Shown here: positions 9,038 through 38,039 of the stretch, piece by piece | Position numbering within the stretch: the first letter of the stretch is position 1 | How the letters are laid out: every line of letters begins with the position of its first letter | Origin: a virus | Reading direction: 5' to 3' (one strand) | Length of the DNA: 64,000 nucleotides | Virus record (IMG/VR): IMGVR_UViG_3300027782_000054 | Location: 31,175 to 95,174 of that record | Position numbers and translations under genes: made by a program | Notes under the pieces: model-generated | Database searches by the model: none | What the model was told of the DNA's origin: nothing | Seen by the model: only the letters and a program-made list of their open reading frames with translations

Positions 9038-14944
<5,907 letters not shown>

Positions 14945-14966
14945 AACAATATGAGGATATTCAATT

Positions 14967-15764
14967 ATGGCTAATACCGCCGCACAAACATACGTAGGAG
15001 CTACTGGTGTAACTGGTCCAGCTGGCGCTGCTGGTGCATCCGGTTCTACAACTTATGCAGGCAGTCTTGCCTCTTCATCTTCAGTTGCAGTTTCATCTGG
15101 AAATCAGACATATCTTCTGACTGGCACAACTGGAGTAACTACCGTTACAGGTGGCACAAGTGGTTCAATATTAACTCTCATCGCTTCAGGGCAAGCCACG
15201 GGCGTCTGTGTCGTTCTCAACCATGCGGCATCTACCAACAACCTGTCGCTGCGTGACTCCGCAAACCTAGGGATTTACGCTGGTGAGTCCGTCACGTTCG
15301 TGTACGACGGAACAAAGTGGGTTGAGATTGCCCGCGACCTTCGCAAAGTGCTGTCGTACAACTTTGCTGAAGCTTCCGGCAGTATTTCGTCAACGACCGT
15401 GGCTGGCGGAAACACGTTGGCTACAGCATCTTCGATTACGTTTGATGGTGCAACGCCCATTGTAATCACCCTCTACCTCTACTACTGGGCGACCGGTTCA
15501 ACAGCCGGTAGCGCGGTCTTTGCAAACCTGTGGGATGGCGCTACCGCAAAAAACCGAGTCGCGTACCTAAGTAACAGTGCGGTCGCTTCCGCGCAGTCCT
15601 TGACTCTGTTCACGCAGGTTCGGTTGACGCCTACGGCTGCGGCTCGCGCCTACTCAATTCGTGCTTTTCGCGCAACCTCAAACGGAGAATGGGGAACAAC
15701 CGATAATCCGAGCGCCACCGGCGATAACGGGCAGGGTTTCATTCGCATTGAGCGGGACATCTAA
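14967..15764 (+). CDS. Fibre-tip paralogue 1 (class A N-terminus)
   Basis: Shared core LSLRDSANLGIYAGESVTF.YDG..W.E..R plus variable C-terminal beta domain. Confidence 0.7.
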   Translation: MANTAAQTYVGATGVTGPAGAAGASGSTTYAGSLASSSSVAVSSGNQTYLLTGTTGVTTVTGGTSGSILTLIASGQATGVCVVLNHAASTNNLSLRDSANLGIYAGESVTFVYDGTKWVEIARDLRKVLSYNFAEASGSISSTTVAGGNTLATASSITFDGATPIVITLYLYYWATGSTAGSAVFANLWDGATAKNRVAYLSNSAVASAQSLTLFTQVRLTPTAAARAYSIRAFRATSNGEWGTTDNPSATGDNGQGFIRIERDI

Positions 15765-15836
15765 TGTCTCCGAACTTTTTCACTAGGTGTTTTTTTTGAT
15801 GCGTACGAGAAGTTTCCCGGCATTGGTATAGGCTAA
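15764..15836 (+). pseudogene. Deleted and frameshifted remnant of the 56-aa gene at 19464
   Basis: Encodes CFF/DAYEKFPGIGIG* versus CFPDAYDKYPGLGIG*; frame broken in a T run. Confidence 0.7.
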
Positions 15837-15913
15837 TTAATATTAATTTTGCCCAAAACCTTTATTTTTACTCTACAACCAAGAATAATATATAGAATGA
15901 ATGGATTAACACA

Positions 15914-16240
15914 ATGACTGATGTTGTCACTAAATTTTATCAGGGGTATCTAGCTCCTTCTGGAACCAATATTACAGGAGTAGCTCCTGCTGCCACAAAC
16001 TTTACTATTAAGCATATTGTATTTAGTAATGTAGGTACAGGAAGTGCTTCAATTGCTTGTGGATATAACAATATTGCCGTTTCTTCTAATTATATTATGC
16101 CAAGCGGCATTGTCATTGGTGCTGGAGAATGGGCAGAATCCACAGACATCTATGTTCTTAATGCTGGAGACTCATTATTTGCCGCAGCATCAGTCAGCGG
16201 TACAATTACCGCCACTGTCCATGGAATCACTAGTACCTAA
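15914..16240 (+). CDS. Small virion adaptor-like protein (paralogue of 36440)
   Basis: FYQGY.A.SGT...I..IV.SN...AGDSL.A...ITA.VHGIT shared with 36440. Confidence 0.65.
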   Translation: MTDVVTKFYQGYLAPSGTNITGVAPAATNFTIKHIVFSNVGTGSASIACGYNNIAVSSNYIMPSGIVIGAGEWAESTDIYVLNAGDSLFAAASVSGTITATVHGITST

Positions 16241-16257
16241 ACTAGGGCAGGAATCGT

Positions 16258-17055
16258 ATGGCCTGGAAATTCTTTAATAATAGTGGACAGCAGAAGATTA
16301 ATAGTCCTACATATGATTTTGCTACCGTTTCTTCAGCATCTTCTATTGCCATAGCAAACAATACCGTGAATTCAGTTACGGGGACAACAACTATCTCTTC
16401 TATGACTAATGGAGTGCCTGGAAGCATCGTTACTCTTCAAGCTTCGGGTCAGGCTAATGGTACATGTCTTATCTTAGCAAATGGAACTGGATCAAATAAT
16501 CTTTCATTAAGAGATAATCAAAATTTTGGTATTTACGCCGGTGAATCAGTTACTTTTCAATATAATGGTTTTAAGTGGGTTGAAGTTAATCGTAATATAA
16601 GAACTATTCTCCAAACAGTTAGAGTTACTACTGCAACAACAATTACTGCAACTACTTCAACTTCAGGAAACTCTGGTGGAACATTAATAGCTGACTTGGG
16701 CGCAATGTCATTTGATGGAACTACTCCAATGTCTCTTGAATATCATATTCCATATATATATTCAAGTTTAAATGTAAATGGAATTAGTCGTGTTTTATTT
16801 TGGCAAACTTCTCCTTCTAGCATCCAGATAAGTAGTTACTTTTTATATTACCAACCCGACAATGCAGGACAAGAGTATTTTTCAATGAAAAACTCTTATC
16901 GTTTTACTCCTTCAGCTGGATCTGCTACATATAGATTAACAGCTAATCGTGACAGCTCTGGAGTCAGTTCATCTGCTGCAGTGGCTGGAACTAATAATTC
17001 AGGAGGCCAATGCACAGGATACTTCAGAATTGCAAGATCTCTATCTTATGCTTAA
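16258..17055 (+). CDS. Fibre-tip paralogue 2 (class B, MAWKFF)
   Basis: Shared LSLRD.QNFGIYAGESVTFQY core. Confidence 0.7.
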   Translation: MAWKFFNNSGQQKINSPTYDFATVSSASSIAIANNTVNSVTGTTTISSMTNGVPGSIVTLQASGQANGTCLILANGTGSNNLSLRDNQNFGIYAGESVTFQYNGFKWVEVNRNIRTILQTVRVTTATTITATTSTSGNSGGTLIADLGAMSFDGTTPMSLEYHIPYIYSSLNVNGISRVLFWQTSPSSIQISSYFLYYQPDNAGQEYFSMKNSYRFTPSAGSATYRLTANRDSSGVSSSAAVAGTNNSGGQCTGYFRIARSLSYA

Positions 17056-17073
17056 ATATTAAGGATTATCAAT

Positions 17074-17853
17074 ATGGCATGGAATTTTTTTACAAATAAT
17101 GGATCTACCAAATATAATTCAGGTGGGAATAGTCCTATTGTCGTAGCATCTGCTGCCTCTATTTCAATAACTAGCAATACTGTGAATTATATTACAGGGA
17201 CAACATCTATAAGCTCTATGACTGGTGTAGCGCCAGGGGACACCGTAACTCTTTCTGCTTCCGGTCAAGCAACTGGTGGCTGTCTTATCCTAGTGCATGG
17301 AACCGGATCAAATAACCTTTCTCTTAGAGACTTGGCAAATTTCGGTATATATAATGGCGAATCGGTTACCTTCCAATACACAGGCTCATATTGGGTTGAA
17401 ATCAATCGTAATGTAAAAGAGATTATTAACTATAAATCTATTACAGCAGATACTTCTGTGACAACTTCATATAGCGAGACTTTTGCGGGTGTTTTCAATG
17501 TAGCCACAACGGACAATATAACATACGATGGAGTCACTTATGTTGATATTGAAATGTATCTATCAGATCTTTATTCCCTTCTTATTAATGCAAATTTGTA
17601 TCTTACCTTATGGGAAGTCAATAGCCAAACAGCAATTGGAAGAATAGCTAGGTATTCTGATCCTAGTAGCGCTGGTAATTTTCATAGACCTGGACATGGA
17701 AGAATTAGATTACAGCCTGGATCCGGAACATCTGGTGCATATCAGTATAAATTAGGCGCTAATTCCGTAACTGCCGCAACAACAATTGGAGGCGCTACTT
17801 ATGCAGGTTCATACCTAAGAGTAGTAAGATCTCCCGCATCCATTTCTTCATAA
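17074..17853 (+). CDS. Fibre-tip paralogue 3 (class B)
   Basis: Shared core motif. Confidence 0.7.
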   Translation: MAWNFFTNNGSTKYNSGGNSPIVVASAASISITSNTVNYITGTTSISSMTGVAPGDTVTLSASGQATGGCLILVHGTGSNNLSLRDLANFGIYNGESVTFQYTGSYWVEINRNVKEIINYKSITADTSVTTSYSETFAGVFNVATTDNITYDGVTYVDIEMYLSDLYSLLINANLYLTLWEVNSQTAIGRIARYSDPSSAGNFHRPGHGRIRLQPGSGTSGAYQYKLGANSVTAATTIGGATYAGSYLRVVRSPASISS

Positions 17854-17872
17854 AAAATTAGAAAGATACATT

Positions 17873-18652
17873 ATGTCTTGGAATTTATTTACAAACTACG
17901 GATCTATTAAGAAAAACACAACAAAACAGACAACTGGAGTTGCCACAGTAGCTTCTGCGTCGTCTATTGCTGTAACCAATAACGCCATTAACTATATTAC
18001 AGGTACAACAGGTATTACCAATATGACCGGAGGAGTACTAGGAGGCATAGTTACCCTTATAGCATCCAATCAAGCCGCTGGAGCTTGTGTTGTTTTAAAT
18101 CATGGTACATCAACAAACAATCTTTCTCTTAGAGATTCTATAAATCTAGGTATATATGCCGGTGAATCAGTGACTTTTCAATACAACGGTTCATATTGGG
18201 TTGAAATTAACCGTAATTTAAGAACTATCATTGAGAATAAAGCTACTACATCTGCTATTACAACCATTACAACAACTGATACCTCATCATCTACATTGTT
18301 TGCTTCAACAAGCAGCATAACATATGATGGTGCAACATATATTACTCTTGAAGTTTTTGCCCCAACTTGTGCGCCTCCAGCTATAGCCGGTAATTACGTT
18401 ATTGCTACTGTTTATGATGGAAGTACAAATACAGGCTATATGGTCGAACGAAAAACATGTGCCAGTGGTGCAGATTATGCTTCATTTACTGGAATTTCGA
18501 CAATAAGACCTACAGCAGGCGCTCATACATACAATGTAAGACTGTGGCAAACAGTAAATGGTGGGAACGTAACCTCTGGTGTCGGTGGTGCAGGTGCTTA
18601 TGTAAATGGAGGGATAAGAGTTAGTAGACTTTTATCTGGATATACAAATTAA
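17873..18652 (+). CDS. Fibre-tip paralogue 4 (class B)
   Basis: Shared core motif. Confidence 0.7.
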   Translation: MSWNLFTNYGSIKKNTTKQTTGVATVASASSIAVTNNAINYITGTTGITNMTGGVLGGIVTLIASNQAAGACVVLNHGTSTNNLSLRDSINLGIYAGESVTFQYNGSYWVEINRNLRTIIENKATTSAITTITTTDTSSSTLFASTSSITYDGATYITLEVFAPTCAPPAIAGNYVIATVYDGSTNTGYMVERKTCASGADYASFTGISTIRPTAGAHTYNVRLWQTVNGGNVTSGVGGAGAYVNGGIRVSRLLSGYTN

Positions 18653-18708
18653 ACTTATATTTCAAGAACAACTGTCTTATAATAAGAGAAATGAGGATAG
18701 CATAAGCA

Positions 18709-19464
18709 ATGGCATGGAATTTATTCACTAATACTGGTAGTCAAAAGACTAGTGGTACTGTTACTGCTGGTGTTTCTACAATAGCCTCTGCATCAAGCAT
18801 TGCTATCACTAATAATTCCATTCATCTTATTACCGGTACAACTGGTATTAGTGCAATGACTGGTGGAGTTCTTGGTAGTTATGTAACACTTGTTGCAAGC
18901 GGACAGGCTACTGGTGTGTGTGTTGTTCTTAACAACGGAACTACGTCCAATGCTTTGAGTTTGCGTGACTCCGCTAATCTTGGCATTTATGCGGGTGAGA
19001 GCGTGACGTTCATGTATGACGGAACGAAATGGGTCGAGATCGGCCGCGACCTTCGCAGCGTCCTCGACTACGTGCAAGGCACCTCGAACACAAACATCAC
19101 TGCCACAACGGCCGGTACCGCTAACACCATTGTGACCGCCACAGCGTTTACATCAGACGGCGCAACACCAGTCGATATCACCTATTTTGCCGCAGCCATT
19201 GACACCCCTAACGTCGTAAACGGCACCGTTAGTCTGATCCTGTACGAAGACGGCACGAACCGCGGACGCATCGGGGACTCCCCGGGCATTCAGAACACCC
19301 GTTTTGGCTTCGGCACATATGTGACTCGGCTTACACCGGCATCTGGTTCTCGCACTTATTCAATGCGCGGATATGTTAACGGTGGTACTGGCGTGATTCA
19401 GGCCGGTGCAGGCACAACGACGACCTACACGCCGACGTACATCAAGATCAGCAGGGCGCTCTAA
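18709..19464 (+). CDS. Fibre-tip paralogue 5 (class B)
   Basis: Shared core motif; GC-rich 3' half. Confidence 0.7.
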   Translation: MAWNLFTNTGSQKTSGTVTAGVSTIASASSIAITNNSIHLITGTTGISAMTGGVLGSYVTLVASGQATGVCVVLNNGTTSNALSLRDSANLGIYAGESVTFMYDGTKWVEIGRDLRSVLDYVQGTSNTNITATTAGTANTIVTATAFTSDGATPVDITYFAAAIDTPNVVNGTVSLILYEDGTNRGRIGDSPGIQNTRFGFGTYVTRLTPASGSRTYSMRGYVNGGTGVIQAGAGTTTTYTPTYIKISRAL

Positions 19465-19634
19465 TGCAACTAGTCATCAAAACAGACACAACGTATAACG
19501 AAGACAGGACTGTTAATACTCAAGGCAAGTGGTGGTATGAACATCCGGATGGTTTTGTATCGGATCAATTCGATAGCAGGGACGAATGCTTCCCTGATGC
19601 TTATGATAAGTATCCTGGTCTTGGTATAGGGTAA
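19464..19634 (+). CDS. Small protein (56 aa, not in ORF track) coupled to tip paralogue 5
   Basis: TAATG overlap; MQLVIKTDTTYNEDRTVNTQGKWWYEHPDG...YPGLGIG*. Confidence 0.65.
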   Translation: MQLVIKTDTTYNEDRTVNTQGKWWYEHPDGFVSDQFDSRDECFPDAYDKYPGLGIG

Positions 19635-19690
19635 CTGGTCTTATATTGATAAAATAACTTCCTCATAATAAGAGGAATGGGAATAATATA

Positions 19691-20473
19691 ATGACTAGTA
19701 GCTCTGAACAGACTTATATGGGTCCTGCTGGTCCTAGTGGCGCAGCTGCTCCCTATGGAATATCCACAATAGCTTCTGCGTCTACAGTAGCCATTACGTC
19801 TGGATATACACATCTTATCACTGGCGTAGTCCCCATTACTAAAATGACTGGTGGTATCCAAGGGTATACAGTGACCTTGGTCGCTTCTGCTCAATCATCT
19901 GGAATTTGTATTATCATTACCAATGGTGATGGTTTTACACAAGACACACTTAGTTTAGTTGGATCAAGATCACTTGGTCTTTATGCTGGCGAGTCTATTA
20001 CTTTTCAATATGATGGTGGATCATGGAATGAAGTCGGGAGAAATCTAAAAGATATATTAGATTTTCAATCAATATCTTCGACAGTGCCTTTCACTGGTGG
20101 ACAGTTCTCTATAGCACAACTCGTAATAGCACATAATGCTATCACGTTTGATGGTGCGACTCCTATTGAAATTAAGTTTCATTGTCCAGCAATTACCGCT
20201 CAAAAACCCTATGGTAGCGATGGTATATCAATACAGATATGGGCAGGAACGGTCTATACTGCGGATATTGGATACATGGGAAAAGGAAATATCCAAAGTT
20301 CTAGTTACATTGGATCATACTCTCGATACTTTATTCCTCCTCACTCATCAGTACAATATACCATTAGAGTTTTGGGAACTGTTGAAAGTCCAGGTTCAAA
20401 TTATATTCAAGCAGGAAATAGTAGTTCAGGTAATTATGGAAATGCTTACTCAGTAATAAGAAGAGCGATTTAG
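19691..20473 (+). CDS. Fibre-tip paralogue 6 (class A)
   Basis: QTYMGPAGPSG N-terminus; LGLYAGESITFQYDG..W.E.GR core. Confidence 0.7.
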   Translation: MTSSSEQTYMGPAGPSGAAAPYGISTIASASTVAITSGYTHLITGVVPITKMTGGIQGYTVTLVASAQSSGICIIITNGDGFTQDTLSLVGSRSLGLYAGESITFQYDGGSWNEVGRNLKDILDFQSISSTVPFTGGQFSIAQLVIAHNAITFDGATPIEIKFHCPAITAQKPYGSDGISIQIWAGTVYTADIGYMGKGNIQSSSYIGSYSRYFIPPHSSVQYTIRVLGTVESPGSNYIQAGNSSSGNYGNAYSVIRRAI

Positions 20474-20481
20474 GATATACA

Positions 20482-21264
20482 ATGACAAGTAGTATTTCAC
20501 AAGTATATATAGGAACAATGGGACAAACTGGACCCACTGGTCCTACTCATAATTCAGGATCTATTCATATATATTCAGATTCTTCTATTGCAATAACCCC
20601 CTACTCCACAAACTATATACAGCTTGGGGATAATCAGATTATCCAATCCATGACAGGGGGATCACCTGGGGATATTATAAATATAAAATCAGATGTATTC
20701 CCTCCTCCTGACATCCCCGGAAAAACTTATCTTACTCTGCAGAATGGCGTTGGATCAAATAGCCTTTTATTGAGAGATTCTAAGGATGTTAGTCTTTATA
20801 TTGATGATTCAGTAATGTTTCAGAATGATGGAACTCAATGGATTGAAATAAGTCGCAATATTCAAAAAGTATTGTCTCATCAATCATCATCTTCTTCAAA
20901 AACTATCAATCATAATACTGAGGCCACTGCTAGTCTAGCCCTTACTCATGATCAATTTGAGTTTGATGGATCTACTGCAATAGAAATTATGTACTTTATG
21001 CCTAAACTTGACTTAGCCGACACAAGCTTTTCTGTAATATTATTTGACAATGGTTCTTCTGTAGGCAAAATGGGATATTCAAATATTACGGCAACTTACC
21101 CATCTTCTGTTTCACAACTTTTAACACCGACATCTGGAAGCCATGAATATAGTATTAGATTATTGAATTCAGGAAGCAATCCAACGACTATATCTGCAGG
21201 CGCTGGTACTTCATCAGGGTCTAATCCAGGCCCAATGTATTCAATAATGAGAAGGATATCGTAA
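20482..21264 (+). CDS. Fibre-tip paralogue 7 (class A, divergent)
   Basis: QVYIGTMGQTGPTG N-terminus; LLLRDSKDVSLYIDDSVMFQNDG..W.E core. Confidence 0.7.
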   Translation: MTSSISQVYIGTMGQTGPTGPTHNSGSIHIYSDSSIAITPYSTNYIQLGDNQIIQSMTGGSPGDIINIKSDVFPPPDIPGKTYLTLQNGVGSNSLLLRDSKDVSLYIDDSVMFQNDGTQWIEISRNIQKVLSHQSSSSSKTINHNTEATASLALTHDQFEFDGSTAIEIMYFMPKLDLADTSFSVILFDNGSSVGKMGYSNITATYPSSVSQLLTPTSGSHEYSIRLLNSGSNPTTISAGAGTSSGSNPGPMYSIMRRIS

Positions 21265-22007
21265 TGGCTAGTAGCTCTCTACAAGTATATCCTGGCCCTA
21301 CTGGTGCTACTGGAGCAGCTATACCCGCTAGTATTTCAACCATAGCCTCTAGTGGCTCTATTGCAATTACTCCAGACTATACTCATTTAATTACTGGAAC
21401 AAATACAATAAGCACGATGACTGGTGGAACTACTGGATCAACCGTTATTCTCATTGCTTCTGAAAGTGACATACTTATACTAAGTCATGATACTGGGTCA
21501 GATAATTTAAAACTAAGAGACAGTAAGAATTTTGGCATCTATTCTGGTGAATCTGTGACTTTCCAATATGATGGCACAAAATGGATAGAAGTTGGTCGTA
21601 ATACCAGATCAATCCTTAGCTACAAATCTACTCAATCTGCTATTACTGTCAGTGGAACATCTGAAGCTACTGCTGTATCTCTCTTTAGCCATGACTCTAT
21701 CCCTTGCGATGGAGTAACTCTAGTCCAAATTGAATTTAGTTGCAACGCATTGACATCCAGTACGTCTAGTGATACATATTTTGTACTTTTTGAAGACGGA
21801 GTATCAAAAGGATTCATAGGAGTAAGCACCATGGACTCAGTATCATACCCGATAACAACTTCTAGAATATTCACACCTTCATCTGGAAATCATCAATATT
21901 CTATAAAAGCCTATAGAACTACTGGGAACAATACTATCCAGGCTGGCAATGGAACATCGGGAAATTACAGCGCTGCATATTCTATAATTACAAGAGTTTT
22001 CAGGTAA
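21264..22007 (+). CDS. Fibre-tip paralogue 8 (class A)
   Basis: QVYPGPTGATG N-terminus; LRDSKNFGIYSGESVTFQYDG core. Confidence 0.7.
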   Translation: MASSSLQVYPGPTGATGAAIPASISTIASSGSIAITPDYTHLITGTNTISTMTGGTTGSTVILIASESDILILSHDTGSDNLKLRDSKNFGIYSGESVTFQYDGTKWIEVGRNTRSILSYKSTQSAITVSGTSEATAVSLFSHDSIPCDGVTLVQIEFSCNALTSSTSSDTYFVLFEDGVSKGFIGVSTMDSVSYPITTSRIFTPSSGNHQYSIKAYRTTGNNTIQAGNGTSGNYSAAYSIITRVFR

Positions 22008-22049
22008 CAAGACTTACATTTAAGCAGTAACTTTGTATTAATATTAGAT

Positions 22050-23885
<1,836 letters not shown>

Positions 23886-23938: not shown

Positions 23939-24991
23939 ATGAGACTACACCTTGTTGCAATGCCCCATACTAAAGTAACCGCAGAGTTTTGCGGTTGTGC
24001 ATATACGGCGAAGGCATTGAAGTTCTGCAAAATGATGACTGCTATTGGTCATGAAGTTATTCTTTACGCGCCCGAAGGCAGCGATGAGACTTATGCCAAA
24101 CTAGTAGTTTGTCTTACAAATGAAGAGCGCATTGGCATCTTTGGTGAAGATGATTCATCAAGACTTCCTGCGTGGCCTAATGATGATGAGTGGAGGCTCT
24201 TTAATCAAAGAGCCATTGAGGGTATCAAGGAAAACGCAGATCCTCACGATCTTGTTCTTCTAGCATCTGGTTGGTCACAAAAGGCTATCCAAGATGCTCT
24301 TCCTGATCTTCTTTATTGTGAGCCAGGAGTAGGATATGAAGGTATCTTAACCTCAAGATGTGCATTTGAATCATATGCCTGGATGCATCATATCTATGGC
24401 AAAGCCAATATCAATGATGGTAGATGGTATGACGCTGTAATTCCAAATTACTTTGATATGGCCGATTTCCCCACTATTGGAGAAGGAAAAGGCGGTTACC
24501 TAGCTTACCTAGGCAGACTTATTCATCGTAAGGGTGTAGAAACTGCTGCTCAAATAGCCAAAGATATGGGTATGCCATTAAAGATTGCTGGTGCAGGTCA
24601 TATGAATCTACCTGGAGATGTTGAATTTATTGGTCCAGTAAATGTGCAACAAAGGGCCGAATTCCTTGGTGGAGCAGTCGCTCTACTTACTCCAACCTAT
24701 TATATTGAGCCATTTGGCGGTGTAGCCATTGAAGGAATGATGTCTGGAACACCTGTAATCACCACAGATTGGGGTGCTTTTAGCGAAACAGTCAAGAATG
24801 ACGTAAGCGGATACCGTTTCAGACTGCTCCGTGAGGCCATAGAAGGCGTTGAGAAGGCTGCAAGCCTTGATCGCAATGCTGTGCGTCAGTATGCAATAGA
24901 TAACTATTCACTAGAAGCCGTAGGACCCATGTTTGATAAATGGTTTAATAACCTTCAAACACTCTGGGGCGATGGCTGGTATGCTAAATAA
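23939..24991 (+). CDS. Glycosyltransferase family 4 (GT-B)
   Basis: YLGRLIHRKG and EPFGGVAIEGMMSGTPVITTDWGAFSE motifs; upstream TGCTATAAT at 23903-23911. Confidence 0.9.
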   Translation: MRLHLVAMPHTKVTAEFCGCAYTAKALKFCKMMTAIGHEVILYAPEGSDETYAKLVVCLTNEERIGIFGEDDSSRLPAWPNDDEWRLFNQRAIEGIKENADPHDLVLLASGWSQKAIQDALPDLLYCEPGVGYEGILTSRCAFESYAWMHHIYGKANINDGRWYDAVIPNYFDMADFPTIGEGKGGYLAYLGRLIHRKGVETAAQIAKDMGMPLKIAGAGHMNLPGDVEFIGPVNVQQRAEFLGGAVALLTPTYYIEPFGGVAIEGMMSGTPVITTDWGAFSETVKNDVSGYRFRLLREAIEGVEKAASLDRNAVRQYAIDNYSLEAVGPMFDKWFNNLQTLWGDGWYAK

Positions 24992-25060: not shown

Positions 25061-28000
25061 ATGGAATTTTACCCACTAGGCGACGACTCTTTAGGTACAG
25101 ACGGCAGTGTTCAGCATGATATCCCCCTTGAGACTTCTGTTTCTACTTCTGTTAGGGAAAATAAAAAAGCATATGTTCTATTGGTGTCTGCTACGCAGAA
25201 TGTTCTTTCGTTCCTTTATATCCTAAAAGCTGTGATCCTTGCTGCATCTATTCTCACCTCTATTCCTAATGCGATAGGAAAAGCAATTGCCAAGCGCATT
25301 CCATTTATTCAGAGTCCCTCATTTGCATTTAGTCATGCAATTCAATTATTTATCGGCAAGATCACTGCTCTTACTCAATCATCTCTTGCTACCACAATAG
25401 TCCATGAGCTTAAGACCATTGCTATCATAGTAGCCGACTCTGCAAATCTTACAAAAAATATCCTCTTTAATCGCTTAGTAAGTCAATCTGCCAATATTGC
25501 TCGTACAAATGCCATAGCCAAGACAATCTTGGCTACGCAAGGCTTGTTCATTGCTGTTATTAAGGCTATCGCACTAACTATTGCTTCAAGTGTGACAACT
25601 ACAGTCAATGTTGCCAAAGATCATATTCAGCATCTTAAGGCCATCGCTGCTTCTGTACTTGGAACAGCATCTCTACTTAAGAATATTGGGTTCAATAGAT
25701 CTGCTTCACAAAGCTCAAATCTATCCCGCAATAACCTTATCTCTAGAACTATTTCAGCTGCACAAAGCGCGTCATTTGGACTTGGAAGAGGCATCCAGTT
25801 CTTTATCGGGAAGTTTGTAGTTGCAACTCAATCTTCAGTCGTAACAAAAACGGTCAAAGATCTGAAAACTATTGCAGCTTCTGTGGTAGCATCAGCCTCA
25901 ATCTCTAAGGCTATCTCATTCGCTAGATCCATTACCCAGTCTTCAAATCTAAGTGCTGCAAAAGCCTTTAGTCAACTTATCTCTGTTGTTCAATCTACTA
26001 ACTATGCCCTTGCCAAGGGTTTCCAAATGCTTGTCGGCAAGTTTGTTATCTTCACTCAAGCTTCAGTTATTAGAAAAGCAGTTAAAGAGCTAAAGACAAT
26101 CTCTGCCATAGTAGCTGATTCTGTCAATATTGCTAAACTTATCTCATTCAAGAGATTAGCGGGTGCTGTTAATTCAGGTTTCCTAGCTAAAGAAACATCT
26201 CTCGTTCGTCGCGTAACACAGTCCTCTTCCTATGGATTCACCAGAGGGTTCCGCATGGCTATTGGCAAGTTTATTGTAAGTACAGTTGGCTCTGTCATTA
26301 GGAAAACAGTCCAAGAGCTTAAAACGATCTCTGCCACTGTGTCAGACTCTGTCACTCTTTCTAAGGCTAAGTCACTTACTCTGGCGATTCTGCAGTCATC
26401 CAGTCTCTCTCCGACTAAGGCTATTGGTAAATTTGTATCTGCTTCTCAAGGAGCAGCTTATGGATTTACCAAGGGTTTCCAGATGGTGGTTGGAAAGATT
26501 ATTATTGCCACGGATGCTTCTGTTGTCCGCAAAGCAGTACAAGAACTTAAGACCATTTCAGCTACAGCATTAAGTTCTGTCAGTGTACTTAAGAACATCC
26601 TATTTAATAGAACGGCTTCCCAGTCTGCTACATCTACATTAACAAAGTTTATATCAAAAACAATAATTGTCTCACAAAGCATTGTTGCTTATATAACCAA
26701 GGCTATCAATAAGCTCATTCAGGGTATTAATGTTGCAACACAAGTATCAGTCAATTCAGACATTATTCTTCACCTGAAGGCCATCTCTGTTGCAGTTGCA
26801 AACTCAGCATCTCTAATGAAGGCAATCTTATTCAATAGACTTGCTACTCAATCAGAAAGCCTCGCACAAAATAAATTCATTGCAAAGACAACCTCTTCCA
26901 TTCAGTCTTTATCTTACGGCTTTGTAAAAGGATTCCAGATGGTGGTTGGAAAGATTATTGTCGATGCACAGGCTTCAGTTATTCGCAGAACAGTACAGGA
27001 ACTTAAGTTTATCTCTGCAGCTGTAGCCAACTCAGCCACAATAGCCAAGAGCGTTCTATTTAATAGGATCGCCACTCAATCATCAACTGTCTTCATCGCC
27101 AAGGCTATAAGTAAAACTATTGCATTCGCTCAAAGCCTTATCTTTGTCTTTACTAGAGGAATGCAACTCTTTGTCAGCAAGACTATAGTTGATGTATCTG
27201 CCTCAGTCGTAAGAAGATCTATTAGTGAACTTAAGGCTATCTCAGCGACAGTATCTAACTCAGTCAATCTTATGAAGAGTGTTCTTTTCAATCGCATAAT
27301 TGTACAGTCATCTACTTCTCGTCTAACAAAGGCAATCTCTAGATTTGTTGATTTTGCTCAAGCAGCAACTGTTGCTCTAACAAACAATAGAGCTATATAC
27401 CAAACTATATCTACACAAGTATCATCTTCAATAGCTCGCATTATTGATGTCTCTAAGGGTGTCGCCTCTAGCGTAGCCACCTACTCAATGCCATTCAAGG
27501 CGATAACTCTTGATATTGCCAAGATCATCTCTGCTTCAGTCGTGACTGTTGCCAAGGACAACATAAGAGAATTTAAGATGATTGCAATATCTGTAGCTAA
27601 CTCAGTTTCAATAGCGAAGGCAATTGTATTTAATCGGTTTGTAAATCAATCAAGCAGTTTAACGAGAAATGTTGCTATTAATAAAGCCGTATCAATTTCT
27701 CAGAGCATAGCGTTCACCTTCGCAAAGGGCGTTCAAATTGCTGTTGGTAAAATCATCGTTGCAATCCAGGCTTCTGTAGCAAGGATGACTGTTCAGGAGC
27801 TTAAAGCAATTGCCGCTTCAGTCTCTAACTCAGTAAGTGTTGCAAAGTCCACCGTGTATGCAATACAATTGTTGCAAAGCTCTAGTTTAAACCTCACAAA
27901 GTTTATCTCTAAAGCTGTTTCCGCCGGACAAGCAATATTCTTTGTCTTCGCCAAGGGCGTACAAATCCTCGTTGGAAAGACAATAGTCGCGTCTGTAGGC

Positions 28001-31000
28001 TCTGTAGCTAGGAAAACTGTTCAAGAACTCAAAGCGATTACGGCCACTGTTGGAAACTCCGTTACTCTGTCTAAGGCCAAGTCGCTTACCTTAACCGTTC
28101 TACAGTCATCTACGCTTGGACCAGTAAAGGCCATCACAAAGTTTGTATCTGCGGCACAGGGAGCGTTATATGGCTTCACAAAGGGCTTCCAAATGGTCGT
28201 GGGCAAGGTTATTGTGTCTATCCAGGCATCAATGGTCAAAAAGTCTATAGCGGAACTTAAGGCGATTGCTGCTTCAGTTGCAAATTCAGTCAATATTACG
28301 AAAAATATCTTCTTCAATCGTGCATTCAATCAAGTTACGTCAGTTGCTCGCACTAATGCCATACACAAGAATATTAGTGCCATCCAAGGCTCACTTGTTG
28401 CAATAGCAAAATTAGTTGCATTAACACTTAGTGCCTCTGTAAATACAATTGCGACTGTGACCAAAACTCACATTGCACATCTCAGAACCATCTCTGTCTC
28501 TGTCTTTAATGCAGCTACTTTAGTCAAGAATATCTCATTCAATAGAATCTCATCTCAGTCTGCCACTCTAATACGCGGTAAGGCTATCTCTAGAGCGGTA
28601 TCTATTGCACAATCTACATTCTATGTCTTTAGCAAGGGCGTACAGATATTTGTCAGTAAGTTCATCGTAGATACTCAGGCATCTGTTGTCAGAAGAGCAG
28701 TTAAAGAGATTAAGACGATCTCTGCTACTGTATCAAATTCAGTATCTATCGCCAAATCAATCTTATTCAATAGAAGCATCTCTCAAGCAAGTAATCTATC
28801 TTCACACAAGTCAACTAACAAATTTGTTAATGCTGTACAAAGCTCTTATTTCGTATTCTCTAGGGGAGTGCAGCTATTCATTAGCAAGTTCATCGTTGCC
28901 TCTGTTGTTTCTGTTGCCAAAGTCGCTGTTGCTGAGATCAAGGCTATCTCCGCATCTGTATCTAGCTCTGTCAATTTGACAAAGGCTATCTCATTCAGCA
29001 GATTTATTACACAATCTAATAACCTACAGCACAACAAAACTATCTCTAAAGCAATAGATGTTGTTCAATCTTCATTCTTTGCTTTAGCCAAGGGTTTTGA
29101 AATGATCGTAGGAAAGATTGTAGTCGTAATCCAGTCTTCAGTAATAAGAAGAACAGTCAGCGAACTGAAGACTATCTCTGCTTCAGTCGCCAATTCAATC
29201 AACCTACTTAAACTTATATCATTCAGCAGAAACGTAAATCAATCTTCAGTTCCTGGGTTCACCAAGGGCTTCCAGATGTTCATCTCTAAATTCATTGTTG
29301 AAACACAAGCCACTGTAGTCAAGAGAGCAGCGGAAGAATTCAAGATAATCTCTGCCACTGTATCTAGCTCAGTATCATTAGCTAAGGAAATCTTATTTAA
29401 TAGATCCCTAATCCAAGGTTCGTCATCAACAATAGCCAAGGCGATTTCCAAATTCATATATGCATCACAAAGCACTTCAGTAAATATTGCAAAGAGAATC
29501 TCTCTAGTAATTAAGGCATCTGTTTCTACTATAGTAACTCTGATTAAGACACACGTTGCACATCTCAGGACAATTGCTGTAGCAGTCTCAAATCCAACAT
29601 CGCTTATTAAAGCAGTGCAGCAACACAAGCCTACCTTAGTAGCTTCTAATTTCGTATTCAATAAGTTTATTGGGACAGCCTTATCAGTAACACAGGGCGC
29701 TCTTTATGGATTTACCAAGGGCTTCCAAATGTTCATTAGTAAGATCATTGTCGATACTCAGTCTTCTCTGGTAAGAAGATCTATTCGTGAAATTAAGACA
29801 ATTTCACTAGCAGTAATGAGTTCAGCGAATGTTGCCAAGAATATATTGTTTACTAGACTTACTACACAATCATCTATTGTATCTTTAAACAAGGTCGTAT
29901 CTCTTACGATTGCCTTTGTACAAAATACAGCCTATACCTTCCTTAAGGGTTTCCAGATGCTCGTTGGCAAGTTTATCGTTGCAACACAGATTGCTGTAGC
30001 CAGAAAAGCAATTGCTGAAATCAAGGCTATCTCGGCTATCGTCTCAAACTCAGCTTCAATTGCAAAGGCCATCTTATTCAGTCGCAATGCTACTCAATCA
30101 TCTAGTTCTGAAATCGCTAAAGCAATCTCAAAGATTGTTCACTTCATACAGAGTGCTTCGTATTCAATTAGAAGAAATGTTTACCTAACAATATCTAGTG
30201 TTGTTAATGTATCTGTAACTCTTAGCAAGATGGGAGTAGCACATCTCAGGACTATCTCTGTATCTGTATCTAATTCAGCTACTCTAATCAAAGACCTTGT
30301 CTTTAATAGAAGTGCGTCACAAGCCTCTGTCTTGAATCCTGCTAAGTTTATCTCTAAGACTACATCTCTCGCTCAGAGCATGGCCTACGGCTTCACGAAG
30401 GGCTTCCAGATGGTTGTAGGCAAGATCATATCTGCCACTCAAATAGCCGTAGCTAGAAAAACTGTTCAGGAACTTAAGGCAATCACGTTTGCTGCCGCTA
30501 GCAATGTAAATATTACAAAAGCTATATTCTTAAGTACGCTTGTTACTCAGAATATATCTGCGACAATAACTAAGCTTATTGGTAAGACCTTGGAGGCTAT
30601 CCAATCTGCGGTTGCTACTCTAGCTAAGAATATATCTCTAACCATACGCAGTATAGTTACCACAGTAGTAACTGTAACTAAGACTCATATTGCTCACCTC
30701 AGGACCATTTTAGCAACGGTAGGAAGTCCTGCATCCTTGGTGAAGGCAGTGCAGCAGCATAAGGTAGTCACAACCCCCCTGAGCTTTACTTTTGTTAAGC
30801 ACATCAGAGAAACTCTCTACGCTTCTCAAGGCGCTGTTTACGGGTTTATCAAGGGTTTCCAGATGGTCGTCGGTAAGATCCTATCTTCTACTCAGATAAC
30901 TCTTGCTAGAACAACAATTGCAGAGCTTAAGACTATCTCTCTTACTGTTGCAAATACAGCCAATCTCAATAAGGCTATCGCCTTTAGTAGAGTAGTAGCA

Positions 31001-34000
31001 CAATCCTCAACAGTTGCTCTATTTAAAACTATCAATAAGTTTGTTATTGCGACCCAAGGAACATTTGCATCAATTGTTAAGAATGTCTCTCTAACAATTC
31101 TTGCATCAGTTAACACAGTCACCGATACTATTAGAGATATCGTCGCTCATCTCAAGACCATTGCCGTAAGCGTAGCTAATACAGCGAATCTTAGCAAGGA
31201 AATTCTATTCACTAGATTTGCGTCACAAGTTAATACAATCAATTCTTCCAAGATTGTATCTAAGTACCTCCAGCTTTCACAGACAACAGTCTATGTCTTT
31301 ACGAGAGGTTTCCAGTTATTCATTAGCAAGTTCATAGTGGCGATACAAGCTGTAGTTGTAAGAAGAGCCATTGCAGAGCTTAAAACAATCACGGCTTCAG
31401 TATTTAATACTGCTTCTATCATAAAATCAATTGCATTTAATCGTAACGCAAGTCAATCCTCTACGATTGCTCCTCAAAAGTTTATTTCTAAAGCCACTTC
31501 ATTTACTCAGGCTATGGCATATGGGTTCACTAGAGGATTCCAGATGTTCATTGGTAAGCTTGTAGTAGGGGTTCAACCAATTGTTGCTAAGCTAGCAATC
31601 TCTGAACTTAAAGCAATTACCGCAGCTGTAGCTAATTCAATTAATCTAACTAAGGATATCCTGTTCAGTAGATTCATTAGCCAATCCTCTAACCTAAAGA
31701 GATTCAATGCCATAGACAGAGCGATTGCTATTGCTCAAGGCGCAGCCTATGGGGTTACCAGGGGATTCCAGATGTTAGTTGGTAAGTTCGTTATCGCAAC
31801 GCAGATGTCAGTTGCTAGAAAGACTATCTCTGATATCAAGACCATTGCTCTTACGGTTAGCAGTAATACAAAGATTGCCAGGGATATCGTGTTCAATAGA
31901 GCAATTATCAATAACACACAAGTAACTGTTACTAAGAGCATAAATAAGGCAATTAGCATCGCTCAAGGCATCTCTGCATCAATTGTTAAGTACATTTCAC
32001 TAACCATTATTGGGTCTGTGAATACAGTCGTAACTGTGAATAGAGCAAGCATCGCACACATAAAGGCAGTATCTGCTTCTGTATCCAGCACAGTCAATCT
32101 TACAAAGAGTATTCTATTCAATAGGGCTATTGGACAATCAGTAATTGTTAACCTCACTAAGGTTGTATCTAAGACAATCACGTTTGCACAAACAGCTGCC
32201 TACAGCTTTACGAAGGGCTTCCAAATGTTTGTTGCTAAGTTCGTAGTAGCAACTCAAATGACTGTTTCAAAGCTCACAGTAGCAGAACTAAAAACAATTT
32301 CAGCAACAGTTGCTAACTCTATATCTCTAAATAAACTTATTTCATTCAATAGAGAAATATCTCAAGCTTCTTCAGCAACCTTATCTAAGGCTATTTCCAA
32401 GCTCATCGTATTAGTCCAAACAATGTCATATGGCACAGTTAAGGCTGTAGGAATACTCGTTGGTCGTATACTTACTGTCACACAATCATCTGTTGTCAGG
32501 AAGACAATTGCAGATCTTAAGACAATAAGTACAACAGTCGCAAGCTCTGTATCACTAGCCAAGGTCGTTGAGCTTAGACGCCTTGTGGCTCAGTTGTCAA
32601 GTCTATCTCTATCAAGAACTATAGCTCAATTCATCTCTGTATCACAACAGACTGCCTATTCACTTGCCAAGGGCTTCCAAATGTTCGTAGGTAAGATCAT
32701 AATTGAAATACAAGCATCTATGGTCAGGCTCACAGGTCAAGAGCTAAAGACAATTGCTACTACCGTTGCTAACTCTGTGAGACTTTCTAAGCGTATCTCA
32801 TTCAAGAGATTCGCAGTTGTTATCGATCCAGACTTGTTAATTAGAGATATCAATTTTAATCGTAAAATTATCCAATCTTCAGTTCCTGGGTTCACCAAGG
32901 GCTTCCAAATGTTCATTGCTAAGTTTATTGTAGGTACAGTTCTTTCTGTTGCAAGAGTGACTGTGCAAGAGATCAAGAATATCTCAGCAACTGTAGCTAA
33001 TTCCGTCAATCTGACAAAGAGTGTTCTTATTAGAAAGAACATAACACAAGATGTTTACTATTCAATTAGAAAAAATATAAACATTACCATAAGTAGAATT
33101 ACAGTAACTATACTTTATCATATACATAGGTATGTTGCACATGAGTTCTTAGCTCTTGAGACTGTTGTAGCAAGCTCAATAAACCTTATCAAGGATATTT
33201 TCTACTATAAATCAATAGTATCAAATACTCAATCATTCATAACAAAAGCAGCATCTAAGGTTATTAGACTCGCACAGGCTTCTGCTGCATTCCTAAATAT
33301 AAGTGGAATACTACATCACGTACTCATAAGTGTACTCGTCAACACAAGAAGAATCACTCCATTGACACGGATTGGATCTGCTGTTGGTAGATTTGCTACT
33401 GGTCTACATCCAATTGGTTATGGTGAATATGCCTATGAATATGCGAAGATCCTGCTCTTGCAAGTTAATTTAAATAAGAATATAAATCAATCAACGAACG
33501 CCTCTCTTGCAAAGAGAATTGGTAAGTTTATCATAGCTGTCCAGGCAACATTCTCTATGTTCACAAGAGGCATCGTCCTTTCAATTGCAAAGACAATTGT
33601 TTCATCATCTGCGTCAGTAGCGAAGAGAGCAATCCAAGAGTTCAAGTATATCTATGTATCTGTATCTACTTCACCGGCTCTAACCAAGTCCATCTTCTTC
33701 AATAGAGTGGCTACTCAGGCATCTACTCTCTATAGATACAATGCGATATCAGTCATAATCGCTGCAGTGCAAACGTCGGTATTTGTATTTGCCAAGGGAG
33801 TCCAATTACTAGTAGGCAAGATTATTGCAACAACGTCTGCAACTGTTGTTAAAAGATCTATCAGCGAACTTAAGACAATAAGCGCAACTGTATATAGCAA
33901 TGCAACGCTTGTTAAAGATATATACTTAAGCCTATTGTTCAATCAATCTAATCAGGTTGTTCGCATCAAGGCAGTCTCAGCAACAATTAATCTTGCACAA

Positions 34001-36001: not shown

Positions 36002-36424
36002 ATGGCCCTCTATAACCTCGTTCAAGTAACTACTAATACTGCTGGTACAGGAACTATAACTCTTGGCGCTGCCGTTGTTGGCTTTAAAGACTTCACTTCC
36101 ATTCCCGATGGCACAACTGTTTCTTACGGCATTGTAGATGGAAATAACCGCGAAGTCGGCAATGGAGTCTATAGCGCTGGAACTCTAACAAGAGGCCCCA
36201 TTACATCAAGCAATAGCAATAATGCAATAGACTTGATTGGAAATAATGCAATAGTCTATTTAACACCAAATAGCACTACACTGGTGACTAATGATTCTCC
36301 TGCATTCATAGGAATACCAACTGCGCCAACCGCTACAGCAGGAACAAATAATACACAAATCGCAACTACTGAATTTGTTCTTAATAACAAACCATCATTT
36401 GCAACTGCAAGAATTTATGCATAA
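36002..36424 (+). CDS. Short fibre/anchor protein sharing the N-terminal domain of the collagen fibres
   Basis: [20 protein letters not shown]...REVG.GVY...LTR; SPAFIGIPTAPTA..GTN.TQIATT.FV tail-fibre motif. Confidence 0.75.
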   Translation: MALYNLVQVTTNTAGTGTITLGAAVVGFKDFTSIPDGTTVSYGIVDGNNREVGNGVYSAGTLTRGPITSSNSNNAIDLIGNNAIVYLTPNSTTLVTNDSPAFIGIPTAPTATAGTNNTQIATTEFVLNNKPSFATARIYA

Positions 36425-36439
36425 AGGGAAATATTAGAT

Positions 36440-36772
36440 ATGTCAGATACAATCTCACGTTTTTATCAAGGTTATATTGCAGCAAGTGGAACAACTATGT
36501 TTATAGTTCCTACAGGACAACGATATACTGTTCGCAATATTGTTCTTTCTAACAACAGTAAGACCGGCGGTAGTGGAGCAAGTCTTTATATCAACTCTAA
36601 AGTCGATAATTCATATGCCATTATTCCATCAGGAAGTATGATCAATCCTGCCGCAATCATACAGACTACAGACTTCTATGCGTTTGCAGCGGGAGACTCA
36701 TTGATTGCAGTATTGGCATCTGGCTCTACAAATTCAATAACAGCATCCGTCCACGGAATCACTACTTTATAA
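36440..36772 (+). CDS. Small virion adaptor-like protein (paralogue of 15914)
   Basis: Shared motifs with 15914. Confidence 0.65.
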   Translation: MSDTISRFYQGYIAASGTTMFIVPTGQRYTVRNIVLSNNSKTGGSGASLYINSKVDNSYAIIPSGSMINPAAIIQTTDFYAFAAGDSLIAVLASGSTNSITASVHGITTL

Positions 36773-36776
36773 AACT

Positions 36777-37301
36777 ATGCCATTTTTTAATTCCACATTA
36801 TCTTCTGATAGTCAGAATAGTCCACCCGGAATAATCCATATGTACGGAGGAGTTACTGCTCCTACTGGGTGGTTATTGTGTGATGGATCTACTGTGGGCC
36901 GTGTTGCATATCCAGGTCTATTCAATGCCGTATCTACCCTATACGGATCTGGCGATGGATCTACTACCTTCACTTTACCAGATATGAGAGGCCGTATGCC
37001 TGTTGGCAAAGGTACTCATGCTGATGTGTCTACTGTTGGAAATAACGATGGAGTCGCCGTTGCAAATAGAAGATCAAAGCACAATCATACAGTTACCGAT
37101 CCTGGGCATACGCATAACATCGCGGACATCACTGGAGTTGGCGAGATCACGCAAGCCAAGGTAACCACCGGCGGCAGCGGCGCTGGCTACACGCCGCAAT
37201 CCACGACAAGTGCAACGACCGGCATCACGGTTGGTGTTGGTGGAACAGCCGCGACCGATGCTCCTGCTTACCTAGTCATTAATTATATTATTAAAACTTA
37301 G
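36777..37301 (+). CDS. Phage tail-collar domain protein
   Basis: PPGIIHMYGGVTAPTGWLLCDGS...Y..LF...YGSGDGSTTFTLPDMRGR; C-terminal PAYLVINYIIKT. Confidence 0.9.
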   Translation: MPFFNSTLSSDSQNSPPGIIHMYGGVTAPTGWLLCDGSTVGRVAYPGLFNAVSTLYGSGDGSTTFTLPDMRGRMPVGKGTHADVSTVGNNDGVAVANRRSKHNHTVTDPGHTHNIADITGVGEITQAKVTTGGSGAGYTPQSTTSATTGITVGVGGTAATDAPAYLVINYIIKT

Positions 37302-37340: not shown

Positions 37341-38039
37341 ATGAAATCTATTGCAATAATTATTCCTATTGTAAATAATTTTGGTGGAGCAGTTCAAGCA
37401 TTACAGAGTGTTAATACTAAGCATAGTTGGACTCCTATCATTTTACCTCAATGGAGAGAACCTAAACCTCTATCTGCTGCATGGAATAAAGGCATAGATG
37501 AAGCTTTTGATGAAAAGAGCTTTGACTATGCTTTAGTTATTAATGATGATATTATTTTTGCTCCATGCACTATTGATAACCTTGTAGCCGAATTTGAGAA
37601 CCAACCAGAAGATGTATTGATGGTCACTGGTTGTAATACAAGAGGAGAAATCGATCAGACTTATGGGACTCCTTTGGCGACTCTTGTATATCCCGATCCA
37701 GGTATAACTGGTAATTTTAGAGAACATCCTGACTTTTCTTGTTTTATGATTGATAGAAGGTTGCCTGAGATTGTCGGTAAGTTTGATGAGAATTTCATTC
37801 CTGCATATTTTGAAGACAACGACATGCATTATAGAATTCAATTAGCTGGCTGGAAAGCCGGTTGTACAAATTCTGCACCTTACTATCATTTTGGATCACA
37901 GACTATCAAGCCAGATTCATTCCATAATACTTTTAAAACGAATAGAGATTATTATATTAATAAGTGGGGAGCAGCACCAGGGCAAGAAACATTTGCAAAA
38001 CCATTTAACGATGTCTCTAAGACATGGAAAGATTTTTAA
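37341..38039 (+). CDS. Glycosyltransferase family 2
   Basis: LSAAWNKG, VINDDI (DxD) and FDENF.PAYFEDNDM motifs. Confidence 0.88.
   Translation: MKSIAIIIPIVNNFGGAVQALQSVNTKHSWTPIILPQWREPKPLSAAWNKGIDEAFDEKSFDYALVINDDIIFAPCTIDNLVAEFENQPEDVLMVTGCNTRGEIDQTYGTPLATLVYPDPGITGNFREHPDFSCFMIDRRLPEIVGKFDENFIPAYFEDNDMHYRIQLAGWKAGCTNSAPYYHFGSQTIKPDSFHNTFKTNRDYYINKWGAAPGQETFAKPFNDVSKTWKDF

Follow-up and report, generated by a model that had tools for sequence, protein, structure and literature searches.

The eight-gene array

The DNA analysed here, hereafter the window, is a stretch of 64,000 nucleotides corresponding to bases 31175-95174 of a 95,174-bp IMG/VR record (IMGVR_UViG_3300027782_000054), which is linear and about 60% complete according to CheckV. 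The source is an uncultured freshwater tailed phage. The window contains two genes for collagen-like fibres (fibres 1 and 2), which flank the array of eight related genes that is the subject of this study (Table 1). A preliminary description of the window had placed eight paralogues of about 250-265 aa between the two fibres, and had regarded them as a library of receptor- or glycan-binding tips that is displayed simultaneously or is exchangeable. The array was confirmed, since all eight genes are intact open reading frames (ORFs) on the + strand, encoding proteins of 247-265 aa.

The paralogy of the eight genes is far beyond chance. When paralogue 5 was used as a query against the record, the other seven were recovered with E-values of 1.5e-30 to 2.2e-56, and nothing besides was found. 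The alignment of the eight proteins has 19 invariant columns, and the motifs that had been picked out as shared, namely the G..W.E..R junction, DG.T, P......Y and the terminal R, are all among them. The boundary between base and tip of each paralogue was placed at the invariant W.E..R motif. The pairwise identities are then 27-75% for the bases and 22-36% for the tips, and the description of a constant base with a divergent tip is true in relative terms. The base of gene 7, which carries an insertion, is an outlier.

The alignment and a genome-wide motif scan both showed that the two N-terminal classes, with four genes each, are real. Class A is defined by Q.Y followed by two to five Gly-X-Y triplets, and class B by M.W.(F/L)F.N.G..K. 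The scan for these tags returned the eight genes and one 209-aa ORF at 44236, which fits a loose class-A pattern only. The class-A start had been called a mini-collagen; the triplets are indeed present, but a run of two to five is too short to score (Pfam Collagen, E 0.18). The plan of the proteins is thus an N-terminal tag of 15-30 aa, a beta-sandwich base of about 90 aa and a TNF/C1q-like jelly-roll tip of about 140 aa.

Table 1. Genes and gene remnants of the array, the fibres and the related small genes (positions in the window)
Feature	Position	Strand	Length (aa)	Remarks
Collagen-like fibre 1	9038..14944	+	1968	N-terminal anchor of about 95 aa, Gly-X-Thr collagen runs, interspersed globular domains, CBM5/12-like stretch
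Paralogue 1	14967..15764	+	265	Class A tag; base to codon 123 (nt 15335); GC-rich TNF-like tip from 15336
Remnant of the 56-aa gene	15765..15836	+		Decayed; last ~14 codons, no start codon; after paralogue 1; repeat D13, 76% to 19595-19643
108-aa protein	15914..16240	+	108	All-beta; directly upstream of the first class-B gene
Paralogue 2	16258..17055	+	265	Class B tag; base to codon 112; tip
Paralogue 3	17074..17853	+	259	Class B tag; base to codon 112; tip
Paralogue 4	17873..18652	+	259	Class B tag; base to codon 114; tip
Paralogue 5	18709..19464	+	251	Class B tag; base to codon 113 (nt 19047); GC-rich TNF-like tip; the protein modelled
56-aa small gene	19464..19634	+	56	ATG overlaps the stop codon of paralogue 5 (TAATG)
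Paralogue 6	19691..20473	+	260	Class A tag; base to codon 117; tip
Paralogue 7	20482..21264	+	260	Class A tag; most divergent base (insertion; to codon 125); tip
Paralogue 8	21264..22007	+	247	Class A tag; base to codon 112; tip; start overlaps the stop codon of paralogue 7
Collagen-like fibre 2	22050..23885	+	611	Anchor and internal globular domain as in fibre 1; Pfam Collagen E 2.3e-20
Anchor-domain protein	36002..36424	+	140	Third copy of the fibre anchor domain with a short tail-fibre-type C-terminus; 45% to the N-terminus of fibre 1; PHROG tail-fibre matches
110-aa protein	36440..36772	+	110	Paralogue of the 108-aa protein (42% identity, E 5e-24); directly before the tail-collar gene
Tail-collar-domain protein	36777..37301	+	174	PHROG tail and tail-collar families, best E 7e-27

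Predicted structure of the paralogues

The AlphaFold2 model of paralogue 5, built with a 56-sequence alignment, has two domains and is all-beta. The confidence of the model is high (predicted local distance difference test score, pLDDT, 91.5; predicted template modelling score, pTM, 0.83) except for residues 1-20, where it is low. As modelled, the tip (residues 114-251) is a TNF/C1q-like jelly roll. In an exhaustive structural search, its best match was the TNF-like lectin PLTL (9ib6), with a Z-score of 12.8 and a root-mean-square deviation (rmsd) of 2.3 over 122 residues. The chlamydial Pgp3 C-domain (4jdn; Z 12.4), the Bdellovibrio fibre tip Bd2734 (8okw; Z 11.5), EDA-A1 (Z 10.6), F-BclA (Z 10.5; BclA and F-BclA together range from Z 9.9 to 10.5), a chain of the portal-tail complex of cyanophage A4 (Z 10.2) and the short tail fibre of cyanophage A-1(L) (Z 9.9) were also matched. 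Dozens of TNF/C1q entries at Z 8-10 covered the whole domain, and Foldseek agreed with a probability of 1.00. The top matches in the library of predicted viral structures (BFVD) were proteins of uncultured Caudovirales, several of which are named C1q domain-containing. No C1q or TNF family was present among the Pfam matches of the paralogues up to E 1, no PDB sequence matched the profile of the paralogue family at E < 0.5, and PHROGs gave no useful family. On the basis of the model, the likeness of the tip to the C1q/TNF superfamily is one of fold only.

The modelled base (residues 19-116) was matched to residues 610-701 of gp83, the tailspike depolymerase of Acinetobacter phage Solidus (24qj; Z 9.6, rmsd 2.7, 87 aligned residues). 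This match agrees with hits to Phage_depo_C (PF25692) in all eight paralogues at residues ~38-120, which reached 17-22 bits (E 2.5e-4 to 8.6e-3) and lie below the gathering score of 25 bits. Two database relatives (P0006 and P0017) each have a precomputed PF25692 hit. A profile of the base only found 960 representative clusters among 1.84 billion proteins, 59 of them at E <= 1e-10, and in the distant relatives the domain is located at the extreme C-terminus of proteins of 500-1700 aa, as a tailspike cap would be. There is therefore moderate support for a base with the fold of a tailspike depolymerase C-terminal domain, the structural match being a single one near the background level of the tool.

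Three copies of paralogue 5 were predicted to associate, with an ipSAE interface score of 0.95 (median of three runs) as compared with 0.01 for the best control, and a partner pLDDT of at least 89. At least 62% of the contacts agreed among the runs, and the interface spans both base and tip. Of 30 solved pairs, 20 reached the mark used for this score, as did 1 of 23 single chains. The prediction thus supports a homotrimer formed by base and tip together. Since TNF-like trimers are among the solved structures, the pass may reflect likeness to known trimers rather than independent proof.

Exchange of modules among relatives

The array was compared with metagenome contigs (L015-L023), with database proteins (P numbers) and with contigs from public sequencing runs (X numbers). 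Relatives of the paralogues are encoded by 13 metagenome contigs, most of which have two or three members in tandem. Contigs L011-L014, which are related at the portal, stop short of the array and are uninformative on it, and a profile of the paralogue alignment found no relatives in a viral contig collection. In the close relatives, the flanks are 85-99.8% identical to the window, whereas whole modules differ.

The breakpoints lie just after the tag, at the junction of base and tip, and at the gene end. The junction of gene 5 is the clearest case. Contigs L016 and L017 are 90-92% identical to the window up to 19039 (codon 111 of gene 5), then carry an unrelated tip, and are again 99.75-100% identical from 19584 into gene 6; paralogue 6 itself is 99.75% identical in L016. 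In L015 and L018, the homology with the window breaks at 19037, also in gene 5. A similar exchange is found in gene 1. The match of contig L020 runs through the end of fibre 1 and into gene 1 as far as 15329 (codon 121), where another tip takes over; the tip of gene 1 (from 15279, 86%) is located on a different base, in the gene after the 108-aa ORF. In L023, which is 95% identical over the 6 kb upstream of the array, fibre 1 keeps its end and gene 1 its first 20 codons (87% DNA identity), behind which there is a 249-aa body that is unrelated and matches no Pfam family; the second member of this contig bears the tip of gene 1 (90%).

In comparisons with database proteins, base and tip likewise gave discordant identities. 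The base of gene 1 is 97% identical to that of P0036 (tips 26%), and its tip is 90% identical to that of P0068 (bases 53%). For gene 5, the base is 94% identical to that of P0007 (tips 41%), and the tip is 93% identical to that of P0003 (bases 47%).

The number of genes varies as well. In L021, the 108-aa gene and genes 2-3 are colinear with the window (85%) and gene 1 is absent. In L015, the equivalent of gene 5 and the small gene behind it lead straight to fibre 2, with genes 6-8 absent, and the glycosyltransferase and the giant gene further downstream are 96% identical to those of the window. Contigs from three further freshwater or aquatic studies (runs X2, X3 and X6), compared at 90% identity or more, cover genes 2-4 and 6-8 (patchily in X6) and leave the tips of genes 1 and 5 uncovered. 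The variants that these contigs bridge are as follows: gene 1 has its body replaced (15016->15847), 631 nt close to the gene 5 start are replaced in a way consistent with insertion of a collar domain, the small gene has lost an internal segment (19466->19584), and, in X6, the end of gene 6 is joined to fibre 2 (20466->22013), with genes 7-8 missing. Two further joints (15026->20521 and 20546->21292) would connect the class-A tags of separate genes, but their short sides span 20-21 nt, and they were set aside as too weak.

The base composition also sets the tips of genes 1 and 5 apart. The GC content at third codon positions (GC3) is 58% in the tip of gene 1 and 63% in that of gene 5, against 17-27% in the other six tips. 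The two tips are recent imports from a source of higher GC. The ratio of nonsynonymous to synonymous substitution rates (dN/dS) was obtained for base and tip separately in three pairs of orthologues, and was 0.23 and 0.71 for paralogue 2 (against L021), 0.18 and 0.52 for paralogue 3 (L021), and 0.15 and 0.64 for paralogue 4 (L017), respectively. The tips (0.52-0.71) therefore evolve faster at the protein level than the bases (0.15-0.23).

The content of the array, when compared among related genomes and metagenomic contigs, is thus not invariant, because modules are swapped, the array size varies and the tips evolve faster. In the evolutionary sense, the idea of an exchangeable library held good: tips, bases and whole bodies are swapped behind tags that are kept.

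A tandem array with constant and variable parts superficially resembles cassette systems. It could be supposed that diversification or switching is programmed, so that one expressed tip gives way to another through silent cassettes, an invertase or a diversity-generating retroelement. This seems extremely improbable, and it was rejected. Each copy is complete: it has a start codon and a tag of its own and is of full length. Selection on the orthologues is purifying. The copies all lie on the same strand, and a search of 14900-22100 for inverted repeats gave none. The differences between the tips (22-36% identity) run through their whole length and are not confined to a few adenine-templated codons. 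It had also been noted that there is no recombinase or reverse transcriptase nearby. Searches for RVT_1, Resolvase and Phage_integrase, in which the positive controls were detected, found none in the whole 95-kb record, which extends that statement as far as a record of about 60% completeness allows. Genes for general recombination (UvsX-like, RuvC-like and Cas4-like) are located about 25 kb upstream.

Tail-fibre context of the family

The paralogue family comprises 81 clusters at 90% identity, all of which are metagenomic. The unit of base and tip is preceded by a class-B tag in 30 proteins and by a class-A tag in 6. It is fused to a Phage Tail Collar domain in P0015, P0026 and P0072 (E ~1e-21), sometimes with tag B ahead, and in P0033 it is located behind the anchor domain of about 95 aa that is found in the fibres of this phage (45-49% identity). 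There are at least six other types of N-terminal sequence, two of which we take to be N-termini of tail fibres. In P0072, the base is kept and the C-terminal domain is different. With so many N-termini combined with base and tip, this unit is a distal cassette, and the anchor to which it is attached differs from phage to phage. In the present phage, it is encoded separately behind short tags.

The tags, in turn, are found on more than one kind of body. Tag A is carried by base-tip proteins and by the unrelated 249-aa body of L023, and a similar tag heads a collar protein of L015. Tag B heads both base-tip proteins and proteins with collar, base and tip. This distribution supports the view that the two tags behave as independent modules.

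A TNF/C1q-like fold is the receptor- or sugar-binding head of many fibres, for example in BclA, in the mosaic adhesive trimer (MAT) fibres of Bdellovibrio and in cyanophage tail fibres. The earlier interpretation of the proteins as a library of receptor- or glycan-binding tips was partly supported, in that the predicted head is of a lectin type and is predicted to be trimeric, it belongs to a tail-fibre module, and base and tip are fused to tail-fibre anchors in relatives.

There is another possible interpretation of such heads. They are purely structural in the exosporium proteins ExsFA and BclA and in the NC1 domain of collagens VIII and X, and the present locus adjoins Gly-X-Thr collagen fibres and many glycosyltransferases. 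The eight proteins might be structural or decoration proteins, that is, caps or branch pieces on glycosylated collagen fibres or on the capsid, with no influence on host range. We consider this very unlikely. Exchange of cassettes, tips of foreign GC and a 3-4-fold higher distal dN/dS would not be expected of such proteins, and in relatives the unit of base and tip is joined to anchors of tail fibres and to tail-collar domains.

Proposed function of the array

It is likely that the eight genes encode small stand-alone distal tail-fibre proteins, which make up a set of multiple receptor-binding proteins (multi-RBP set) evolving by exchange of cassettes. The N-terminal tag, A or B, would probably dock each protein on the fibre or baseplate apparatus of the virion, and each gene would yield a homotrimeric head, which would give a virion several alternative binding specificities. 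With up to eight binding heads, this would be a 'Swiss-army' multi-RBP apparatus. The location in the virion, the docking by tags, the binding of glycans or receptors and the simultaneous display are what we infer from the data above. All eight proteins are probably made, because the genes are intact, closely packed and co-directional. Ordinary homologous recombination among co-circulating and co-infecting relatives best accounts for the evolution of the locus. The crossover sites are the tags with their collagen-like triplets, the conserved GESVTF.Y.G..W.E..R junction, and the gene end including the 3' end of the small gene; recombination at these sites swaps tips, bases or whole bodies, and adds or removes genes.

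Seven short contigs of a lake metatranscriptome (run X15) are 100% identical to pieces of the array region (window 14700-22300), and cover parts of fibre 1, the junction between the 108-aa gene and gene 2, gene 3, gene 7, the junction of genes 7 and 8, and fibre 2. A 52-nt element is present at 18654-18705 and at 19640-19691, directly upstream of paralogues 5 and 6; the two copies are 75% identical and contain TCATAATAAGAGGAATG-like sequence. This element may be a shared promoter or ribosome-binding region. A scan of promoters and terminators gave fewer promoter-like sites than the shuffled expectation.

Several points weigh against a multi-RBP set displayed on the virion. A TNF-like fold alone is no proof of binding to a sugar or a receptor. 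No branching domain like that of T4gp10 was identified, though no search was aimed at it. The C-termini of the fibres, the 108-aa protein and the 110-aa protein were considered as candidate receivers of the tags; none has a family match, and no docking partner was identified. The AlphaFold2 model of the 108-aa protein, a candidate adaptor, is poor, with a pLDDT of only 54. Genes for sheath, tube and baseplate were not found in the record, which is about 60% complete. The conservation of the tag in L023 could partly reflect a crossover site in the collagen-like triplets, not selection for docking. The contigs from the RNA library X15 hint at transcription in nature, but DNA carry-over is possible and they are no proof; the stretches that they leave uncovered are uninformative.

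The use of only two tag classes for eight proteins can be read in two ways. The two tags might be plug connectors for two sockets, one of which is perhaps provided by the 108/110-aa proteins. The virion would then show up to eight trimeric heads on or beside glycosylated collagen fibres. We put this forward tentatively, as a doubtful extension of the multi-RBP reading. Alternatively, all eight proteins could be made for a small number of sockets, one for each tag class and symmetry position, so that each virion takes up a random subset and a burst becomes a mixed, bet-hedging population instead of particles that are all octavalent. The four near-identical class-B tags would indeed compete for one kind of site, and the array size varies freely among relatives, as if its members were individually dispensable. 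For large phages with 4-11 RBPs, on the other hand, the models have the proteins together on branched complexes (PMC6872550, PMC11414711). Such competition among the tips seems to us unlikely.

Relation to known systems

The array of the window is a compact form of multi-RBP and modular tail-fibre systems that are already known, and its mechanism is not of a new kind. Much is known of multi-RBP phages and of the modular exchange of their specificity domains, though mainly for the large depolymerase tailspikes of enterobacterial phages in culture. Branched multi-RBP phages, which infect Klebsiella, Escherichia and Salmonella, include KP32/KP34, SP6/K1-5, Menlow, PhiK64-1 with eleven RBPs, and the Ackermannviridae with tailspike proteins TSP1-4 (PMC6872550, PMC11414711, PMC13352976). 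In the multi-RBP phages of Klebsiella, secondary RBPs attach via conserved N-terminal peptides, down to seven residues, and the specificity domains move horizontally (PMC6872550). The present locus resembles these systems in that the genes are clustered in the structural region, where synteny is broken (L015-L023, X2, X3 and X6), and in that a short N-terminal peptide is kept while the body is exchanged; the proteins are trimeric, here by prediction. It differs in that the proteins are only about 250 aa long and have no beta-helix depolymerase, the TNF/C1q-like head being the specificity part. Two tag classes of four genes each, and an additional recombination point between base and tip, are further differences.

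The MAT fibres of Bdellovibrio bacteriovorus have TNF-like tips, including Bd2439, in which GlcNAc (N-acetylglucosamine) is bound, and Bd2734, and their tips have been swapped in evolution (PMC10769870). The array shares with them a large paralogous repertoire, a trimeric state and swappable tips, some of them TNF-like. The MAT proteins, however, are cellular proteins of ~600-1100 aa that are scattered in a bacterial genome, whereas those of the window are minimal units of tag, base and tip, tandem and phage-encoded. Proteins of the BclA/C1q type, which consist of a collagen stalk and a trimeric TNF-like head, and phage C1q fibre proteins are similar in their jelly-roll head, and class A has a few Gly-X-Y triplets before the globular part. 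In contrast to them, there is no C1q match at the sequence level, the triplets number two to five in class A and are absent from class B, and a beta-sandwich base is added between stalk and head. The base is like Phage_depo_C in fold and in its weak hits in all eight proteins, but it is not terminal, carries a TNF-like head, lacks a depolymerase body and scores below the Pfam cut-off.

What is distinctive of the present system is a unit of about 250 aa with three cleanly separable modules, found in an uncultured freshwater phage. The exchange is caught directly in natural populations, in the form of sharp breakpoints, foreign-GC tips and array-size variants, and the array could be a marker locus for phage-host arms races in lakes. 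If the tags are docking peptides, the proteins would be small, well-folding trimeric scaffolds for studying host recognition, or for re-targeting it in laboratory phage-bacterium systems. If the plug-connector reading is true, the locus would be a minimal, standardised plug-and-play RBP system of tag, base and tip, the parts of which circulate among freshwater phages of different GC.

Small genes in and near the array

The 108-aa protein has no matches in Pfam or PHROG. It falls into three database clusters, and the ESM Atlas gives only unnamed viral proteins of about 108 aa. Its gene is kept in L020, L021 and L023 (dN/dS 0.12 against L023), and in these contigs, as in the window, it is always directly before the first class-B gene. 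A second mini-module is found at 36002-37301, and consists of the anchor-domain protein, the 110-aa protein and the tail-collar protein (Table 1). Because of this mini-module, the pairing of a 108-aa-like gene with a following tagged gene occurs twice in the genome. The evidence of gene order makes the 108- and 110-aa proteins a lead as candidate sockets; tag B also heads collar proteins in relatives.

The 56-aa gene that follows paralogue 5 is intact and conserved after different tips in L015 (1312-1482), L018 (~705-875) and L020 (1009-1182), and is internally deleted in L016, L017 and run X2. A decayed remnant of its last codons lies behind paralogue 1 (Table 1). The 3' end of this gene looks like the right-hand crossover site of the tip cassettes.

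Collagen-like fibres and surrounding genes

Fibre 1 matches Pfam Collagen at E 1.4e-85 and CBM_5_12 at E 1.1e-6. Its anchor domain is common to fibre 2 and to the ORF at 36002-36424. Fibre 1 is 804 aa long in L023; in L021 it is without the C-terminal globular domain, and the last ~12 residues are kept. The C-terminus of fibre 2 is a collagen run in the window and a different globular domain in L015. An additional 235-aa gene in L015 combines a tag-A-like start with a CBM5/12-like stretch and a collar domain.

A glycosyltransferase gene (23939-24991) adjoins fibre 2, and a downstream cluster (38024-45418) contains glycosyltransferases, a nucleotide-sugar epimerase and a methyltransferase-like gene. 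BclA is an O-glycosylated Gly-X-Thr collagen. Since the fibres are Gly-X-Thr collagens like BclA and glycosyltransferase genes are their neighbours, the fibres may be glycosylated by the phage.

The stretch is present in public runs of freshwater, lake or unspecified aquatic metagenomes, which come from 14 or more studies. Neither the array nor 20 kb of window sequence had a match in DNA searches of the INPHARED phage collection. The genes upstream of the window encode a ribonucleotide reductase, a DnaC-like loader, DnaB, a primase, a large DNA polymerase, a UvsX-like recombinase, a Cas4-like exonuclease and RuvC, as well as the large terminase and the portal. Along the window, nucleotide-metabolism genes are followed by fibre 1, the eight paralogues, fibre 2, the glycosyltransferase and a 3631-aa protein; then come the tail-fibre-like protein at 36002-36424, the 110-aa protein, the tail-collar protein and the sugar-modification cluster.

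Between the portal and the fibre module, the window contains at 1492-6219 genes for an exonuclease-like protein, a deoxynucleoside monophosphate (dNMP) kinase, a protein of the inosine monophosphate dehydrogenase (IMPDH)/GMP-reductase family (Pfam E 1.7e-78) and a thymidylate synthase. This interleaving of metabolic with structural genes is an unusual arrangement. The 3631-aa ORF (25061-35956) has no Pfam match and many internal DNA repeats, which are self-similar at ~65-78% in locus comparisons; its initial ~1640 codons are 96% identical in L015.

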